Positions 4,706-64,000 of a DNA stretch of 64,000 bases are shown here, one piece after another. This DNA comes from Octopus vulgaris (Eukaryota): positions 29,822,001-29,886,000 of the forward strand of contig OX597838.1 of NCBI GenBank assembly GCA_951406725.2. The letters run 5' to 3'. A program made the position numbers and the translations under genes. Numbering within the stretch: position 1 is the stretch's first letter; each line of letters starts with the position of its first letter. The notes under the pieces were generated by a model. The model saw only the letters and a program-made list of their open reading frames with translations, did no database searches and was not told the DNA's origin.

Positions 4706-5295
4706 GAAGGCACATGGTTCAGTGGTTAGAGCGTCGAGCTTGCGATTGCGAGGTTGTGAGTTTGATTTCCGGACCGAGCTGTGTGTTGTGTTCTTGAGCA
4801 AGACACTTTATTTCCTCGTTGCTCCAGTTCACTCAGCTGTTGAAAAGAGTTGTGATGTCTCTGGTGCCAAGCTGTATTGGCCCCATTGCCTTTCCTTTGG
4901 ATAACATCATTGGTGTGGAGAGAGGAGGCTGGTATGCATGGGTGATAAAGGCGGCGAGCTGGCAGAATCGTTAGCACGCCGGGCGAAATCCTTAGTGGTA
5001 TTTCGTCTGCCGTTACGTTGTGAGTTCAAATTCCGCCGAGGTCGACTTTGCCTTTCATCCTTTCGGGGTCGATAAATTAAGTACCAGTTACGCACGGGGT
5101 TGATGTAATCGACTTAATACCTATGTCTGTCCTTGTTTGTCCCCTCTATGTTTAGCCCCTTGTGGGTAATAAAGAAATAGGTATGCATGGGTGATTGCTG
5201 GTCTTCCACAAATCAACCTTGCCCAGACTTGTGCTTCCAAAGGGAACTTTCTTGGTGCAATCTCATGGTCATTCATGACCGAAAGGGATCTTTAT
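4706..5295 (+). mobile_element. Older tRNA-derived SINE (TTGAGCAAGACACTT core) interrupted by a younger SINE
   Basis: tRNA-like head. Related copies near 13690-13890 (+) and 55400-56095, 58075-58395, 59660-59775 (-). Confidence 0.7.
4947..5179 (+). mobile_element. Young SINE with Meta-like domain (GCCTTTCATCCTTTCGGGGTCGATAAA) and 16-bp TSD
   Basis: TSD GGTATGCATGGGTGAT at 4931-4946 and 5180-5195. Confidence 0.85.
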
Positions 5296-5839
5296 ACTTT
5301 AACCCTTTTTTATTATTTAACAGCTTTATATTAATTTATTGTTAGCATCTTTAAAAATCAAGCATAAAGAAAATATAACTTCCAAGAACAGTGAGAATAA
5401 TGGTAAAGAATTCCATTCCCTCCATCTCTTTTCTCCCACTGACTATTCCTGGAAGGGTCATGGGAGTAGACACCCCAGACACCTCTTTCGTAAGATCCTA
5501 TCAGAAGCAACTGTCGTTACATTTTCTGGATGGGTTTCCAAGCATGACCAACCAAGATTATCAATATTATCCAACCAGGCACAGATGTGACTGTGAAGTA
5601 AGAAGTTTGCTTCCTGACCGCCTGGTTCTGAGTTCGGTCCCACTGCATGGCGCCTTGGACGAATGTCTTTTACCATAGCCATGACCCAACCAAAGCTTTC
5701 TGAGAGGATTTGGTAGAAACAAACTGAAAGAAGCCAATCTTAAGAATAAGAAATGTGCTGAGGTCAATTCATTCATCTAAAAATTCTTCAAGGTGGTGCC
5801 CCAGCATGGCCACAGTCTAATGACTGAACCTAATACATA

Positions 5840-6222
5840 CAGGAGTGGCTGTGTGGTAAGTAGCTTGTTTACCAACCACATGGTTCCGGGTTCAGTCCCA
5901 AGTGTCTTCTACTATAGCCTCGGGCCGACCAAAACCTTGTGAGTGGATTTGGTAGACGGAAACTGAAAGAAGCCTATCGTATATATGTATATATATATAT
6001 ATATGTGTGTGTGTGTATGTTTGTGTGTCTGTGTTTGTCCCGCTAGCATTGCTTGACAACCGATGCTGGTGTGTTTAGATCCCTGTCACTTAGCGGTTCA
6101 GCAAAAGAGACCGATTGAATAAGTACTGGCTTACAAAGAATAAGTCCCGGGGTTGAGTTGCTCGATTAAAGGCGGTGCTCCAGCATGGCCACAGTCAACT
6201 GACTGAAACAAGTAAAAGAGTA
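5840..6222 (+). mobile_element. Near full-length CORE-type SINE
   Basis: Head GGAGTGGCTGTGTGGTAAG, internal (TA)/(TG) tract, tail GGCGGTGCTCCAGCATGGCC...ACAAGTAAAAGAGTA. Confidence 0.9.
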
Positions 6223-7479
6223 AAGCGTAAAAGTGTATACAGTTGTCTCAGCTGGAAGAATCTGTCTTGCAATTCAAAGAATTCTTCAACCGAAAACATT
6301 TTTTATTTCAATTTCTCTGGAAATCCTGAAATTTTCTTCACATCTTTAAAATACCAGAAAACACTTTTTGCTTTTATTTATTTATATATTTTGTTTTTGT
6401 TAAGGTCATGATCATTATTATTATTCTTCATTTTAACATCCACTTTTCTATGCTTGCATGGGTCAGATGGGATTTGTTGAGACAGATTTCCTACGGCTGG
6501 ATGCCCTGTCTGTCACCGACAGCAGAGCAGCAATCTGAAGGTGGACTTAGCGTATTTCTCCCGTGGTCAGACATTTTTTTCCTTGGCCAACTTGAAACAA
6601 ACAACATTGTTTGTATGACATTGGCTCTCAATTACAATTATCATGTGGTGTCTAAACATAGAGACACAAATACAAAAACACACACACATACCTACATACA
6701 AACATACATACATACATACATACATGGTGGCCACCTCCTTGTTATCGAGTATGGCCATTGCACGAAGCTTAATCAATGTTGCTATCGTGCAATGCCTGTG
6801 CAAGAAGATTTTTTTAAAGTGAGGAAAGGCTGTGCACTGAGTCAATCCCACTCACTAAGCAACAGCAGCCATAATCCGAAAAGAAGAACAAGTCAACATC
6901 ATCGGAAACCACTGAGCCTGCAGGTTTTATGTCGGAGTTATCCCAGTTACCTGAGTTACCTTCTCCTAGAAGGATGCCCTAACAAAGGCGAGGAGTCCTT
7001 CACTCCCAATGGTTTAACCGCGCGACCGGGTATTCAGTCCGATTATTTCTATGTCCCGCGCATGATACAGCCTTAAGACATTTATTGGATGACCGTTGAC
7101 TCTCAAGATTTCCTCCGCTCTTTGATAGCTTTTGTTTTTCATCCCGCAGGGTGTCCAATAAACACCCTCCTCACCAAGCAAGCTTGGTGGGGTTGACGGT
7201 TTAGTTGCCGACGAATAGACCATGCAACAGGTTGTACTGGGTTACATGTTACCAGTAGCACTCGAAAATGACCTGACCTACACATACATACATACATACA
7301 TACATACATCGCAAAACCAGAAAGGAGAAAGCTAATTCAAAGACTACAGATACAATCCATCAATGGAACTGTAAAAATCTGTAAAACTTTCCAGAAGTTT
7401 ATCATTCAAATATATATGAGCATGTCTAGATATGCAACTATATGCATGAAAATACATAATTAAAACAAAACATACAAAT

Positions 7480-12871: not shown

Positions 12872-13189
12872 TCAGTACACTCTGTAAAGTGTGGTCAGCA
12901 TTAGAGAGGCTATCCAGCCATATAAACCATGCTGAAACGGACATGGAGCCCGGGCACCTTTTCAGATGGCCAGCTCTTGTCAGACCATCCAACTCATGCC
13001 AAACATTGAATGATGTTAAATGATGATGATGATGATGATGATATATATATATATCTTAAAACGAGATTGGGATATTTATGGCGTTTATTTATTCACCATT
13101 CAAGAAAAAACTTTCCAGTTCCTGTTTCCAGTTTTGCTATTATCATTCTGCAGAAAATATTTGCCTGTATTTTTTAAATCTTATACATA

Positions 13190-13600
13190 GGCGCAGGAGT
13201 GGCTGTGTGGTAAGTAGCTTGCTAACCAACCACATGGTTCCGGGTTCAGTCCCACTGCGTGGCACCTTGGGCAAGTGTCTTCTGCTATAGCCTCGGGCCG
13301 ACCAATGCCTTGTGAGTGGATTTGGTAGACGGAAACTGAAAGAAGCCTGTCGTATATATGTATATATATATGTATAAGTGTGTGTGTGTATATGTTTGTG
13401 TGTCTGTGTTTGTCCCTCTAGCATTGCTTGACAACCGACGCTGGTGTGTTTACGTCCCCGTCACTTAGCGGTTCGGCAAAAAGAGACCGATAGAATAAGT
13501 ACTGGGCTTACAAAAGAATAAGTCCCGGGGTCGATTTGCTCGACTAAAGGTGGTGCTCCAGCATGGCCGCAGTCAAATGACTGAAACAAGTAAAAGAGTA
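13190..13600 (+). mobile_element. Full-length CORE-type SINE
   Basis: Complete head, core and tail as in the 5840 family. Confidence 0.9.
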
Positions 13601-18762: not shown

Positions 18763-18802
18763 CTGATGAAGGCTGGATGGTATATCAGCCGAAACGTTGT
18801 GT
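18763..18802 (+). ncRNA. Minimal hammerhead ribozyme motif (family P3), stem I 5' strand truncated
   Basis: CTGATGA-A-GGCTG...CAGCC-GAAAC-GTT-GTGT; element tail continues after a SINE at 19316-19351. Confidence 0.6.
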
Positions 18803-18850
18803 TAGCAACAAACAAGATGAGGACAAATATCCGTCGAATGTAAATAATGT

Positions 18851-19013
18851 AGGAGTAGGAGTGGCTGTGTGGTAAGTAGCTTGCTTACGAACCACATGGT
18901 TCCAGGTTCAGTCCCACTGCGTGGCACCTTGGGCAAGTGTCTTCTACTATAGCCTCAGGCCGACTAAAGCCTTGCGAGTGGATTTGGTAGACGGAAACTG
19001 AAAGCCCGTTGTA

Positions 19014-19092
<79 letters not shown>

Positions 19093-19315
19093 GTGTGTAT
19101 ATGTTTGTGTGTCTGTGTTTGTCCCCCCAACATCGCTTGACAACCGATGCTGGTGTGTTTACGTCCCCGTAACTTAGCGCTTCGGCAAAAGAGACCGATA
19201 GAATAAGTACTAGGCTTACAAAGAATAAGTCCTGGGGTCGATTTGCTCGACTAAAGGCGGTGCTCCAGCATGGCCGCAGTCAAATGACTGAAACAAATAA
19301 AAGAGTAAAAGAGTA
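18851..19315 (+). mobile_element. Full-length CORE-type SINE
   Basis: Same family; short TSD TAATGTA. Confidence 0.9.
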
Positions 19316-19574
19316 ATGTACATAATTCCTCATCTCTTAAATATAGAACTGTATAATCTATTTACACTTTAAATTTCATTTTAGCAAACAAAAGATAAAA
19401 TTTGAACTTTATTTTAGTAAACAAAGATAAACACAAGATATTAAAATCATTTTTCATAAAGTCGTTCATTTTTTAGTCCATTCAGCTGGTGACTAGCTTG
19501 ATATTGGTGTTTCTGACACAAGATATCCTAATCAGTTTTAATGAACTCATTAGTCTGATAGTTCCTCTGCTCTT

Positions 19575-30439: not shown

Positions 30440-30995
30440 AGGCTGTGTGGTAAGAAGTTTATTTCCCCACCGCATGGTTCCGGGTTCAATCCCACTGCGT
30501 GGCACCTTGGGCAAATGTCTTCTATTATAGCCTCAGGTTGACCAAAGGCTTGCGCAAGGATTTGGTAGACGGAAACTTAATGGCAGACCTTTGTACTGCA
30601 ATGCCAGGCCAACACGTGGCAAAGGCGGAGCAAGCCCCTAACTCTTCGCCTCGTTCTAAAAATCAATCTAACATAGATGATCCCTTAATAGGGACCGTAT
30701 CAGATATTAAGCTGATAAGAACAAATACTACACTTTGATCTTAGCCAGAAGTCCGAAAAAAAGTATGTATGCATGTGCGTGTGTGTGTGTGTGTTTGCCC
30801 CTCCTCCACCGACCACTTGACAGCCGGTGTTAGTTTGCTTACATCCCCGTAACTTAGCGGCTCTGCAAAAAAGAGACCGATAGAATATGTAACAGGTTTT
30901 TAAAAATATTGGGGTCAATTCATTCGACTAAACCCCTTCAAGTTGGTGCCCCAGCATGGCCGCAGTCCAGTGACTGAAAGCAGTGAAAGATAAAA
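30440..30995 (+). mobile_element. CORE-type SINE interrupted by a U2 copy
   Basis: Head and core up to GGAAACT (~30577); tail resumes at ~30767. Confidence 0.8.
30581..30766 (-). pseudogene. U2: U2 snRNA pseudogene (near full length)
   Basis: Minus strand CTTCTGGCTAAGATCAAAGTGTAGTATTTGTTCTTATCAGCTTAATATCTGATACG...GATTTTTAG (Sm-like)...GGGCTTGCTCC...CCTGGCATTGCAGTAC matches U2; degenerate 5' end; no snRNA gene context. Confidence 0.9.
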
Positions 30996-43396: not shown

Positions 43397-43577
43397 GATC
43401 GTTAGCCACTACAAACATTTTTTTTTCTCTCCTTGTTTTTTTCTGTGTCCCTTTCTGTAGAAGAGCGTAGGCTCGAAACGTAAAAGACTTTTTCTATTCC
43501 TGAGCGTTATACTAATACATCTGTTTGTTTTGTACACCACCTGTCTTCGTCTTTTGTTTTTTTCGTAAACTCTCCCT
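43397..43577 (+). mobile_element. Penelope-type short repeat (family P2) with variant minimal HHR at 43451-43486
   Basis: CTTT-CTGTAGA-A-GAGC-gtag-GCTC-GAAAC-GTA-AAAG; embedded in (TA)n; second copy at 60102-60288. Confidence 0.65.
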
Positions 43578-44463: not shown

Positions 44464-44509
44464 TATTATATAATACATGTCTATATATTGTATATATATT
44501 ATATATATA

Positions 44510-44785
44510 GGTATAGGAGTGGCTGTGTGGTAAGTAGCTTGCTTACCAACCACATGGTTCCGGGTTCAGTCCCACTGCGTGGCACCTTGGGCAAGCATCT
44601 TCTACTATAGCCTCGGGCCGACCAAAGCGTCTTGAGTAGATTTGTTAGATGGAAACTGAAAGAAGCTCGTCGTATATATGTATGTGGATGTATATGTTTG
44701 TGTGTCTGTGTTCGTCCCCCCCCAACATCGTGTGTCTGTGTTCACGCCCCCGTAACTTAATGGTTCGGCAAAAAGAGACCAATAG
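44510..44785 (+). mobile_element. 3'-truncated CORE-type SINE
   Basis: Family similarity. Confidence 0.85.
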
Positions 44786-45902
44786 AAGACTTGGATGAAA
44801 GCATCAAATATATATGAAAACAAGGGTGGACAAACAAGATGTTACACAAATATAAATACAAAATACAATAAAAATAATAATAATAATAATAATAACAACA
44901 GGCGTCTTTCGACTTGGGACGAATTGAATTCAGCTGGCGTGTGTGGAAATGAAGCTCTATGGCTTACAATGATGTAGGAGAGCATATAAACTCCAACAAA
45001 AGAGAACAGGATAGATTCATGATCAAAATTATCCGTTTGGTGCTTAGAGAAGTGGAAAGAGTCAATGATGGTGCTTTGGACATTGTCTGTCTTTGGAGTG
45101 AAAAAGTGGATGGTAAACCACCCGAAATTGGAAGAAAAATATCCAATGGAGAATTGCCAACATGTGTTGCTTGTCTGCACGGTTGACATGTTAATTAGAC
45201 GAGTTTTACAAAGTTAAATGAACTGGAATTAACTGTGTAAAACAAACATAACACACAACAAATGGCTGGTTAGATCAATATCTGGCAGTAAAATGAAGTT
45301 TTGGATGCTGTCTGTAATGCTGCAGTGTGTCTGTGGCCAAGAGAGCTTAATTCCCTACGGCTGAGTCTACCCAGCTGTAAATAGGTAATACATTGTGTGT
45401 AGTTTATTACTGTAAGCTGCACTGATTGCACTGAAATTGTTTCACTGGCTTTCTCTGCTGAGTTCAGTTCCTCTGGTGAGCATCAGTTTATGAAAGACTA
45501 GCTTCCTATCCTGGTTGAGATTTATTTCTCTTTCACTTAACATTGTTGAAAACCAGTTAGTTACTACTCTTTGGATGCAGGTTGTTTGGAAATGTCGTGT
45601 AAATGTGAAAATAAATATCTTTGTGATGAGAATAGCTTGAAATATCATCTTAAGTCCTTTTAGATAGTTAAACATAAAAAAAAAAAAAAAAAATTAGCTA
45701 ATTCTTTCGATACCAGCCTGTGTAAAATTATCCTTCTTCTTTAATACATAGTTCCATTCTAAAGTGTTGTATTTACATTAAAGCCATTTCTGTAATTTTT
45801 ATTCCAATGGTATTTGGAACAAAGCTTGAGAAAAGAGAAATGAATATTGGTATATTAAACTGGTGTTTGGAACCCGAAAGAACACTTGTATATTAAGATG
45901 GT

Positions 45903-46017
45903 TATTTACATCTTGTTTGTTGTTTACACAACATTTCGGTTGATATACCCTCCAGCCTTCATCAGGTGTCTTGGGGAAATTTCGAACCTGGGTTCTCATT
46001 CCTAAGGTATTTTTCGA

Positions 46018-46052
<35 letters not shown>

Positions 46053-46298
46053 TCACTGCCTGGAATCGAACTTGGAATCTTGGGGTTTAGTAGCCTGTGC
46101 TCTTAACCACAATGCCATATGCCTGTGGGCAATTATGGAGTGAATTTTAGGGCTTATAAATCTAATATTTTCATATCTTGAATGCTGGAAGATATATCAG
46201 CCGAAATTTTGTGTTAACAACAAACAAGATGAAGACAAATATCTGTCTAATGTAAATAATGTATATAATTCCTCATCTTTCAAAATATAGAACTGTAT
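45903..46298 (-). mobile_element. tRNA-headed, hammerhead-containing retroelement (family P3) with 14-bp TSD
   Basis: TSD TATATTAAGATGGT at 45889-45902 and 46299-46312. Minus-strand A box TGGCATTGTGG (46107-46117), B box GTTCGATTCC (46062-46071), (AAT)n and HHR (45926-45969); inverted partial copy of the HHR tail at 46183-46295. Confidence 0.75.
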
Positions 46299-47552
46299 TA
46301 TATTAAGATGGTGTTTGGAACAGTTTCTTAGGATATACATATATGTATATATATATATATAAAGTATGAGTGTGCCTTTTATATCACTGTATAAGTCTTG
46401 TATCATAAAAATCATCTTAATATACCAAAATATATTTGTTTTTTTGTTATATTTCGGAATGGTCATTTTATCAGTTTAGCCAATAAATGGCAAAATGACC
46501 ATTCCGAAATATAACAATATCTGTTTCAACACAAGACTTCACTTAAAAAATCTTGCACAACAAATATATTTGTTTTTTGTTACATTCGAATCACCTTCTT
46601 AATAATGAACAAATTAATTTTATTAAATTCCTACAAATTCTTGATAATTTTTGAAGACCTGATTGAAACGATGTAGAAGGTTGTAACAAGTCAGAAAATA
46701 TCCTCAACAAAGGGTTTAGCAGACAAACGTCCAGGTGTCTGCATTCAAGGATTTGTAACAGAGGACATAGTTTTATCTAAATAGAGAACTGGTGTTGTCA
46801 AAGGCATTGGACAAAGGGTGTTGTGGCATATTTTTCCCAGTGTTTTGCAGTCTGAGTTCAATTCCCGCTGAGATCAACTTTACCTTTTATTCTCCTTGTT
46901 TGTGGCAGGAGGGATGGGGGAGAGGGAGGGTGTTTCTAAAGTGCACCAGCCGAGGATGGTGGACTTGCGGAACCATTGACCCATTGGATTTCATGGTATA
47001 TATTTCACCACTTTGCATGCCGAGTTCAAATCCCATCATAACCAACTTTGCTTGTATTCCAAGATCAACTTTGCCTTTCTTTCTCCTCATTGTTGGGGTG
47101 GAGGTCGATAAAGTACACCAGCCCAGGATGGTGGTCTTGTGGAAACATTAAGCCATCGGACTAAATGTTTTACGATATTACTTTCAGCTTTTTGTGTTCA
47201 GAGTTCAAATCCAATGTGTCTGATAGACAACCTGCTGCCTGGTTTAACACCCCCACCTGCTATCTTTGGGTACCTTTAGTAGAGTCCATTTATTTTATTT
47301 CTTTATTTTTCTTTTTTTTTTTTTTTTGGTGCAGCCATCTGGTTCGCCAGCCCTCAGTCAAAATCGTCCAACCCATGCTAGCATGGAAAGCGGACGTTGG
47401 ATGACATTGATGATGATGATATAAGTGTTTAAGTTGAGCTTCCAATTCAAAGATACCTCCTTCCTTTCCTCCCTCCCTCCCTCCCATGTTCCTTCTAGAT
47501 TTGGAGGTTCCGGAAAGGGTCAGGAGTTCTGCCCCTCCTTCCTGACTAAAGC

Positions 47553-52228: not shown

Positions 52229-52431
52229 ATGTGACCGCATGTGTACCGTTGGCGATGTTTTTCCCTCTGTCTTCCCTTCTCTGGATCTTTCCTATGTTTC
52301 TGATGAAGAGCTCCGCTCGAAACGTTAAACCCTCCTTCTTTCCTTCTTTCCTGAGCGTCCAATAATACTATATTTGTTCCACGTCCTCGCGTTGTTGTGT
52401 TTTTTTTGTGCTTTCTTGTTTGGATTAACTA
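52229..52431 (+). mobile_element. Penelope-type short repeat (family P1) with intact minimal HHR at 52296-52330
   Basis: GTTT-CTGATGA-A-GAGC-tcc-GCTC-GAAAC-GTT-AAAC; flanked by (TA)n. Confidence 0.7.
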
Positions 52432-53844: not shown

Positions 53845-54329
53845 AGGTGCAGGAGTGGCTGTGTGGTAAGTAACTTGTTTACCAACCACATGGTTCTGGG
53901 TTCAGTCCCACTAGGAGTGGCTGTGTGGTTGGTAGCTTGTTTACCAACCACATGGTTCCGGGTTCAGTCCCACTAGGAGTGGCTGTGTGGTTGGTAGCTT
54001 GTTTACCAACCACATGGTTCCGGGTTCAGTCCCACTGCGTGGCACCTTGGGCAAGTGTCTTCTACTATAGCCTCGGGCCGACCAAAGCCTTGTGAGTGGA
54101 TTTGGTAGATGGAAACTGAAAGAAGCCCCATTGTATATATGTATATATATATATGCGTGTGTGTGTTTGTGTATCTGTCCTCGTTACTTAGCGGTTCGGC
54201 AAAAGAGACCGATAGATTAAGTACTAGGCTTACAAAGAATAAGTCCCGGGGTCGATTTGCTCGACTAAAGGCGGTGCTCCAGCATGGCCGCAGTCAAATG
54301 ACTGAAACCAGTAAAAGAGAGTAAAGAGT
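53845..54329 (+). mobile_element. CORE-type SINE with triplicated 62-bp head
   Basis: AGGAGTGGCTGTGTGG units start at 53851, 53913 and 53975. Confidence 0.9.
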
Positions 54330-63858: not shown

Positions 63859-63925
63859 GAATTCAAAATGAATAAATAAGTGCCTTATTTACATTTGAAG
63901 GATATTTGTCTTCATCTTGTTTGTT

Positions 63926-63971
63926 AACACAACGTTTCGGCTGATACACCTTCCAGCCTTCATCAGGTGTC
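63926..63971 (-). ncRNA. Intact minimal hammerhead ribozyme (family P3); element runs off the window end
   Basis: Minus strand GACAC-CTGATGA-A-GGCTG-gaaggtgtat-CAGCC-GAAAC-GTT-GTGTT. Confidence 0.7.
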
Positions 63972-64000
63972 TTGGAGAAATTTCGAACCTGGGTTCTCAT

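Follow-up and report, generated by a model that had tools for sequence, protein, structure and literature searches.

The insertion at 45903-46298 of a 64-kb window of the Octopus vulgaris genome (the whole stretch of DNA analysed) raises the question of how a tRNA-like head and a hammerhead ribozyme came to share one short element. A SINE is normally a parasite distinct from the LINE that it exploits, and the sequence-only reading had proposed a non-autonomous SINE/retrozyme hybrid mobilised by the reverse transcriptase (RT) of a separate Penelope element. Our annotation (Table 1) confirmed the tRNA-like head with its A and B boxes, the (AAT)n spacer behind it and the perfect 14-bp target site duplication (TSD) around the element, as well as the presence of three family loci in the window, among which only this one carries the head. 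The 14-mer of the TSD occurs only twice on its strand of the window, and the longest flank match reaches at least 12 bp in 1.5% of mismatched flank pairs. The inverted partial copy is also present as an arm, but with only half a hammerhead, the one without CUGAUGA, it does not constitute a ribozyme. The hammerhead motif of the direct arm was found as described, although it differs by eye from the copy at 63926-63970 in five rather than two places, of which loop II holds two and stem II, the palindrome and the final base of stem I one each. The stretch 46124-46180, previously left unexplained, is the end of a retrotransposon ORF followed by a short spacer. The locus is a 5′-truncated, inverted insertion that retains the last seven codons and the stop codon of this ORF, and its direct arm begins to match the unit described below 52 nt upstream of the head, at its 5′ truncation point.

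Table 1. Features of the insertion and of the two other family copies in the window.
Feature	Position	Strand	Remark
Target site duplication, left copy, 14 bp	45889-45902	.	Exact match to 46299-46312
Target site duplication, right copy, 14 bp	46299-46312	.	Exact match to 45889-45902
3′ end of direct arm, shortened by internal deletion, tail absent here	45903-45924	-	
Minimal type I hammerhead, damaged in this copy	45925-45970	-	Features as in PMC4209133 (text and one supplement)
Linker, with ATG at 45999-45997	45971-46021	-	
(AAT)n tract, length differing between copies	46022-46048	-	
tRNA-derived head; A box 46117-46107, B box 46071-46062	46049-46124	-	tRNA-Arg scores best
3′ UTR spacer from stop codon to head, short palindrome at its end	46125-46153	-	
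TATA-like word overlapping the stop, ~30 nt before the start point of most copies	46160-46153	-	
Final seven codons of a Penelope/Poseidon-type RT + GIY-YIG ORF, with its stop codon at 46156-46154	46154-46177	-	
Inverted, 5′-truncated second arm: half hammerhead, 3′ body, ~32-nt tail (46262-46298)	46184-46298	+	
Second family copy, hammerhead core intact	63885-64000	-	No head in the flank past the window end
Third family copy	18763-19360	+	Hammerhead and body 18763-18851, tail 19314-19360, later insertion between

The size of the family was estimated from a systematic sample of eighty 10-kb stretches at fixed positions (800 kb of a 2.8-Gb genome in 227 contigs). The sample contained 14 family loci, corresponding to ~49,000 loci genome-wide (95% range 27,000-82,000), which bears out the high copy number expected from the three window loci. 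The head was present at 10 of these 14 loci and at 22 of 28 loci selected by their hammerhead, from which duplicates and the window's own copy had been removed; the linkage of head and hammerhead, which had been put forward as a check, thus holds across the family. The median divergence of the bodies from the majority is 4.5%. Compared with 36 tRNA sequences from the fetched DNA, an incomplete set of isotypes, the head gave its top three scores with tRNA-Arg (z 10-11). As in a tRNA-derived SINE, the head derives from a tRNA with A and B boxes; such a SINE starts at its head and encodes no protein, whereas the locus and the long copies extend upstream into the ORF. The search for tandem units came out negative, as the copies are dispersed and head-to-head, the locus holds one complete ribozyme rather than the tandem units with a complete hammerhead each that characterise retrozymes, and the ribozyme cut marks neither end of any copy. 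At six loci (L019, L023, L027, L041, L043, L366), a family body joins the 3′ end of another recurring repeat, presumably RTE-like, with the junction at the (AAT)n tract, which suggests that a template switch or a recombination event took place at the microsatellite common to both. The window also contains another abundant tRNA-type SINE (e.g., 13175-13389, 44495-44709 and 53850-54170), with 16 heads and no hammerhead seen.

Using the upstream stretch beside the head as a query, we retrieved loci that continue into a GIY-YIG C-terminus and then into an RT. Among 30 RT-selected loci, 20 reach the same-strand end of the ORF, the other 10 having no such end in the stretch fetched; the head follows in 19 of the 20 and the hammerhead body in 18. 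When 30 loci were selected by the start of the ORF, body and tail lay directly in front of it in 25 (including the query's own locus), preceded in 5 of these by the head and in 3 by the ORF end before that. The tail is therefore the beginning of the ORF. Because the ORF end joins the head and the tail opens the ORF, head and ribozyme constitute the pseudo-LTR (pLTR) of a Penelope-like element (PLE), and because the body runs into the ORF start, the copies are circular permutations of one 2.65-kb unit. The unit reads ORF (RT with C-terminal GIY-YIG), stop codon, ~30 nt, tRNA head, (AAT)n, linker, hammerhead and 3′ body, which continues into the ORF start. Its majority sequence comprises 2,649 nt with one frame of 836 codons. 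Where the repeat precedes the ORF, this frame opens at the linker ATG, which lies 70 nt ahead of the predicted hammerhead cut. No unbroken full-length copy was found among the fetched ORF copies, all of which are broken, so that the 836-codon frame rests on the majority of decayed copies. The ORF copies lie ~5% from the majority, and the family looks inactive at present.

A natural 375-residue piece of the ORF matched RVT_1 (E 2.4e-10) and fell with high confidence among the PLE-type Atlas clusters HTH_animal/RVT_1/GIY-YIG. The Pfam GIY-YIG model gave no match to the C-terminal piece, and the domain was read from its motif pattern, with two cysteines between the GIY- and YIG-like words and two histidines after them (CCHH). 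The ORF also carries a DKG motif and lacks the upstream cysteine cluster of the CX2-5CxxC linker finger, which is present in Neptune and Nematis in the passages covered (PMC8557442). DKG, CCHH and the absent linker finger fit the Penelope/Poseidon clade, whose pLTR overlapping the ORF start, optional one-end tail of 30-40 nt, inverted 5′ arm and TSD were all found here. The locus is almost certainly a truncated, inactive copy of a Penelope/Poseidon-type element. The supposed separate SINE/retrozyme with an outside partner was not supported by this analysis, since the ORF runs into the head in nearly all informative RT-selected loci; the autonomous Penelope with the same 3′ end that the sequence-only reading advised seeking does exist, as the ORF element itself and not as a separate partner. 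Three sets of candidate partners were discarded for their other ribozymes and 3′ ends, namely Neptune-like PLEs with 781-aa ORFs and related families, the PLE family from L117, and PLEs from a GIY-YIG motif scan. Young Neptune-like PLEs (L161-L166) have intact RT + GIY-YIG frames of 771-781 aa, an upstream ORF and atypical hammerhead-like cores, and a further young PLE family has frames of up to 1,312 aa. Adjoining the locus on the right, window positions 46430-46570 hold inverted 3′ ends of another PLE family, a pair with its tail on one side that matches by eye the ends of L220/L223.

The mode of insertion was assessed from 80 scored insertions, 33 with two diverging arms and 47 with one arm. 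In the two-arm insertions, the 32-nt tail stands at exactly one end in 31 and at neither in 2; none has it at both ends, where 7.3 would be expected (Fisher P 1.5e-7). The flanks match over 8-14 bp at 21 of the 33 two-arm and 9 of the 47 one-arm loci, compared with 6.5% for mismatched flanks. The combination of one-end tail, inverted arm and TSD is the pattern described for Penelope in the parts covered of two reports (PMC3846280, PMC8557442). Insertion of the family by Penelope-type machinery, as had been proposed for its mobilisation, is supported by this footprint.

The majority hammerhead of the family consists of a 5-bp stem I, CUGAUGA, an extra A, a stem II opened by a G-C pair, GAAA, and a palindromic loop-3 (stem III) remnant preceding the GUU triplet; it has the core, the helix I of 4-5 bp, the helix II and the palindromic loop 3 of a minimal type I hammerhead. 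The core is intact in 59 of 79 family copies. At the locus, where the predicted cut falls between 45930 and 45929 (-), one pair is lost through the substitution in stem II, and no hammerhead was obtained when this copy was folded. Because Rfam finds nothing at the locus (no hammerhead or tRNA match even at E 10), the ribozyme call rests on motif anatomy; ARAGORN likewise found no tRNA in the 64-kb window. Folding of short RNA yielded 0.91-0.94 for stem II, 0.02 for stem I and 0 for stem III, in agreement with the minimal PLE hammerheads described as inactive monomers in the text and one supplement of PMC4209133. The metazoan ribozymes in these parts of the report share with the octopus family the intact core, the extra base between positions 9 and 10.1, the G10.1-C11.1 pair, the 5-bp helix I and the palindromic loop 3 remnant, and dependence on dimers is predicted for both (PMC4209133); the locus copy differs from them in being damaged. 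We tried and rejected purifying selection on the ribozyme core, as the difference between copies (2.4% vs 3.6% changes) is confounded by the choice of query. Minimal hammerheads of other PLE families, ending in (TA)n, lie in the window at 52300 (+), 43455 (+) and 60167 (+); the type at 43455 and 60167 stands downstream of a GIY-YIG ORF in loci L302-L328.

Besides the family of the locus (family A), we identified an older sister family (family B) that has lost nearly the whole ORF (L391-L410, L182-L210, L084:2638-2729). Some 45 nt from the start of the ORF adjoin the TATA-like word of the stop region there; head, ribozyme, body and tail come next, in a circularly permuted unit of ~290 nt (288 nt at L404), with a longer subfamily also present. 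Family B has its own tRNA-like head, a hammerhead with a GUA triplet and the same tail as family A; B body lies downstream in all 20 head-selected B loci, and many B copies extend upstream past the head, as retrieved with a biased query. The relative at L084 had been considered as a partner pLTR and was set aside as a member of this ORF-deleted family. At L210:904-1738, head-less B units form a tandem array of period 333 with 2.5 copies by TRF, flanked by further units. The array is retrozyme-like and was made from a PLE terminal repeat. Family B is closer to a Pol III retrozyme than the locus at 45903-46298.

Evidence on the function of the head comes from where the copies end. Head position +10 is reached by 34 arms in the systematic and ribozyme-selected sets, and 27 of these end within -15 to +10, compared with 13% expected from drop-off within the head; the pile-up is weaker in the systematic set alone, where 5 of 14 arms end in this interval, 4 further upstream and 5 inside the head. 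The locus copy ends at -52 and not at the head edge, and none of the 14 systematically sampled loci extends farther upstream than this. Single-arm copies end at the edge in 14 of 18 cases (4 of 8 in the unbiased sets, the other 10 coming from a head-containing query), and many full arms of two-arm copies whose partner ends elsewhere stop there as well, so that fold-back of the palindrome is not required. Many copy ends lie 2-9 nt past the 3′ base of the hairpin. The TATA-like word, the A box and the B box are common to families A and B, with nearly equal spacing of the TATA-like word and a diverged sequence between the boxes. TTTT is absent from the 2,649-nt majority unit and occurs 1-9 times in the ORFs of each of seven other PLE families here. 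The P value of this absence is 0.007 under a mononucleotide null, 0.028 under synonymous shuffling, 0.057 with the codon use of other PLEs, 0.068 under a dinucleotide and 0.19 under a trinucleotide null. Because copies end at the tRNA edge, the boxes persist in family B and TTTT is absent, the head is probably a working Pol III promoter of the element.

Twenty RNA runs from six organisms and 11 studies hold part of the stretch, and four were mapped. In three RNA-seq runs of a related organism, 5,275-7,173 reads mapped per run from the ~6% of each run that was sampled, equally to both strands. Neither a pile of ends nor a joint was seen at the ribozyme cut in these fragmented, unstranded reads with the head region masked, and a circle joined at the cut restores the genomic sequence and is hence invisible to the joint test. 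As RNA 5′ ends over the head are masked, the transcription start site rests on the genomic copies. A step in read depth at the cut site was rejected as an artefact, since a cluster of mismatches in the reference copy lies at the same place. Across L026:1611-1780, the reads differ at 14-16 A>G and 12-14 T>C places at a level of at least 5%, some of them clustered, whereas the 79 genomic copies here differ at 4 A>G places and 1 T>C place. This suggests A-to-I editing of inverted (head-to-head) copies in host transcripts, in reads from another organism with unmatched DNA.

Taken together, we regard the locus, with somewhat better than even confidence, as a 5′-truncated head-to-head Penelope/Poseidon insertion whose pLTR head likely serves as a Pol III promoter feeding SINE-like copies. 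The tRNA-derived A/B-box sequence that opens the pLTR would act as the internal promoter; RNAs would start at the tRNA 5′ edge, and the element's own RT would copy them into short SINE-like copies, presumably starting near the body/tail boundary. Single ribozymes would cleave weakly or not at all, leaving the short RNAs intact as templates, and dimer cleavage of longer-than-unit RNA may provide unit-length, possibly circular templates. A promoter of this kind leaves translation hard to explain from uncapped Pol III RNA, and the TATA-like word at about -30 suits Pol II as well. It is rather unlikely, though worth serious consideration, that the head is instead a passenger, an old SINE or a piece of tRNA picked up by the 3′ UTR of an autonomous PLE. 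Pol II would then transcribe the element from the TATA-like word or by read-through, and copies would pile up at the head edge through the palindrome there stalling or redirecting the RT. In the literature covered, Penelopes without a tRNA often have palindromes at the 5′ ends of their pLTRs and at inversion junctions (PMC3846280), and known Penelope promoters are Pol II-like, that of Drosophila Penelope lying internally at the corresponding position (PMC2377424). Family B, with its weaker palindrome, has more copies that run past the head, and the absence of TTTT is not significant under the higher-order nulls, both of which would suit a passenger. The sharp edge is nevertheless seen in single-arm copies and in two-arm copies with a distant partner end, with many ends beyond the hairpin base; both families have kept the A and B boxes while the sequence between them changed; and the 800 kb contain no independent SINE with this head.

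The promoter reading also has a bolder form, which we consider unlikely, in which Pol III transcribes the whole coding unit. A captured tRNA-Arg promoter in the upstream pLTR would drive a terminator-free 2.65-kb transcript, which paired hammerheads would trim to unit length by cleaving 70 nt past the start codon. Circularisation by ligation would bring the AUG back to the ORF, so that translation of the enzyme would proceed from uncapped or circular RNA. This promoter would also yield both SINE-like short copies and retrozyme-like circles of ~290 nt; if true, LINE, SINE and retrozyme would exist within one lineage. Quite improbable for the family, and already contradicted for the locus at 45903-46298, is an independent, circle-forming, non-autonomous Pol III SINE/retrozyme moved by a separate Penelope, with the ORF-bearing copies as rare chimeras. 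Such an origin could account for the dominance of short copies and their limited reach upstream of the head (0 of 14 sampled loci beyond 52 nt), for the ORF-deleted B unit with head and ribozyme, and for the one head-less 333-nt array, and some short family A copies may indeed have been re-copied from short copies in the manner of a SINE. It conflicts with the head lying behind the ORF in 19 of the 20 informative RT-selected loci, with the ORF codons in the locus copy itself, and with the dispersed, inverted copies whose ends avoid the ribozyme cut; four other autonomous PLE groups that we fetched have ribozymes and tails unrelated to the family. The absence of a head from the other two window copies could have pointed to a tRNA SINE that landed beside a Penelope fragment at one site, but the recurrence of head, linker and ribozyme in this order within single TSDs, without any solo head lacking a body in the systematic sample, makes such chance nesting negligible.

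All the Penelope features of the unit are already known. According to the parts covered of reports on Pen2a_Av (PMC3846280), D. virilis Penelope (PMC2377424) and related elements (PMC8557442), Penelope/Poseidon PLEs share with the octopus element the single ORF of ~840 codons with RT and C-terminal GIY-YIG; DKG, the absent CX2-5CxxC linker, the ORF start within the pLTR, the ~31-nt one-end tail derived from the ORF, the inverted 5′ arm and the 8-14-bp TSD (PMC3846280, PMC8557442); and the minimal hammerhead in the pLTR with a palindrome at its 5′ edge (PMC3846280). The copies of Pen2a_Av are likewise circular permutations of one unit (PMC3846280). The octopus element differs in that its pLTR opens with tRNA-derived A and B boxes and (AAT)n, and in that short copies starting at this edge vastly outnumber ORF-bearing ones. 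Schistosoma SM-alpha and Sj-alpha, as summarised in part of a review (PMC6765202), likewise have a type I hammerhead behind a promoter of Pol III type, but are short non-coding tandem repeats with canonical ribozymes; in octopus, the promoter-like head belongs to a protein-coding element with dispersed, inverted copies. Metazoan non-LTR retrozymes derive from PLE terminal repeats, as family B and the L210 array also appear to do, and are described in the passages covered as tandem repeats with a ribozyme per unit and abundant circles (PMC7761336; bioRxiv 10.64898/2026.07.22.740005), whereas the locus has a single ribozyme, an inverted insertion, a tRNA head and ORF codons. The TRIMp3 elements Cassandra, Helenus and Ajax similarly carry a small-RNA-derived Pol III promoter in their terminal repeat, but these LTR elements are non-autonomous and do not exceed ~1.3 kb, a length linked by the author, in the part covered, to weak Pol III processivity (PMC10886601), while the octopus repeat belongs to a 2.65-kb ORF-bearing element of non-LTR type. 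No cephalopod minimal hammerhead is reported in the text and one supplement of PMC4209133, the giant squid genome paper gives hammerheads as Rfam counts only in its part covered (PMC6962438), and the covered part of PMC5786205 has no passage on Penelope. Neither a Penelope element with a tRNA head nor this family was described in the literature that we searched; repeat databases (Repbase, Dfam, SINEBase) and subscription papers may catalogue it. A tRNA head within the pLTR of an ORF-bearing element was thus not found described. Pol III promoters in terminal repeats have, to our knowledge, been described only for short non-coding elements.

The element offers a concrete route from one autonomous element to a SINE-like family and retrozyme-like mini-units. 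It also makes several Penelope questions testable in one system, namely where transcription starts, what the hammerhead does and whether the template is circular. For genome annotation, the 27,000-82,000 loci that resemble a tRNA SINE should be recorded as truncated PLE copies; being arranged head-to-head, they are likely to form double-stranded RNA on which A-to-I editing can act. Elsewhere in the window, positions 30573-30764 (-) give a full-length U2 snRNA match (119.7 bits, above the cut-off) with several non-pairing changes, and positions 781-1930 hold a tandem array with a period of 33-35 bp.
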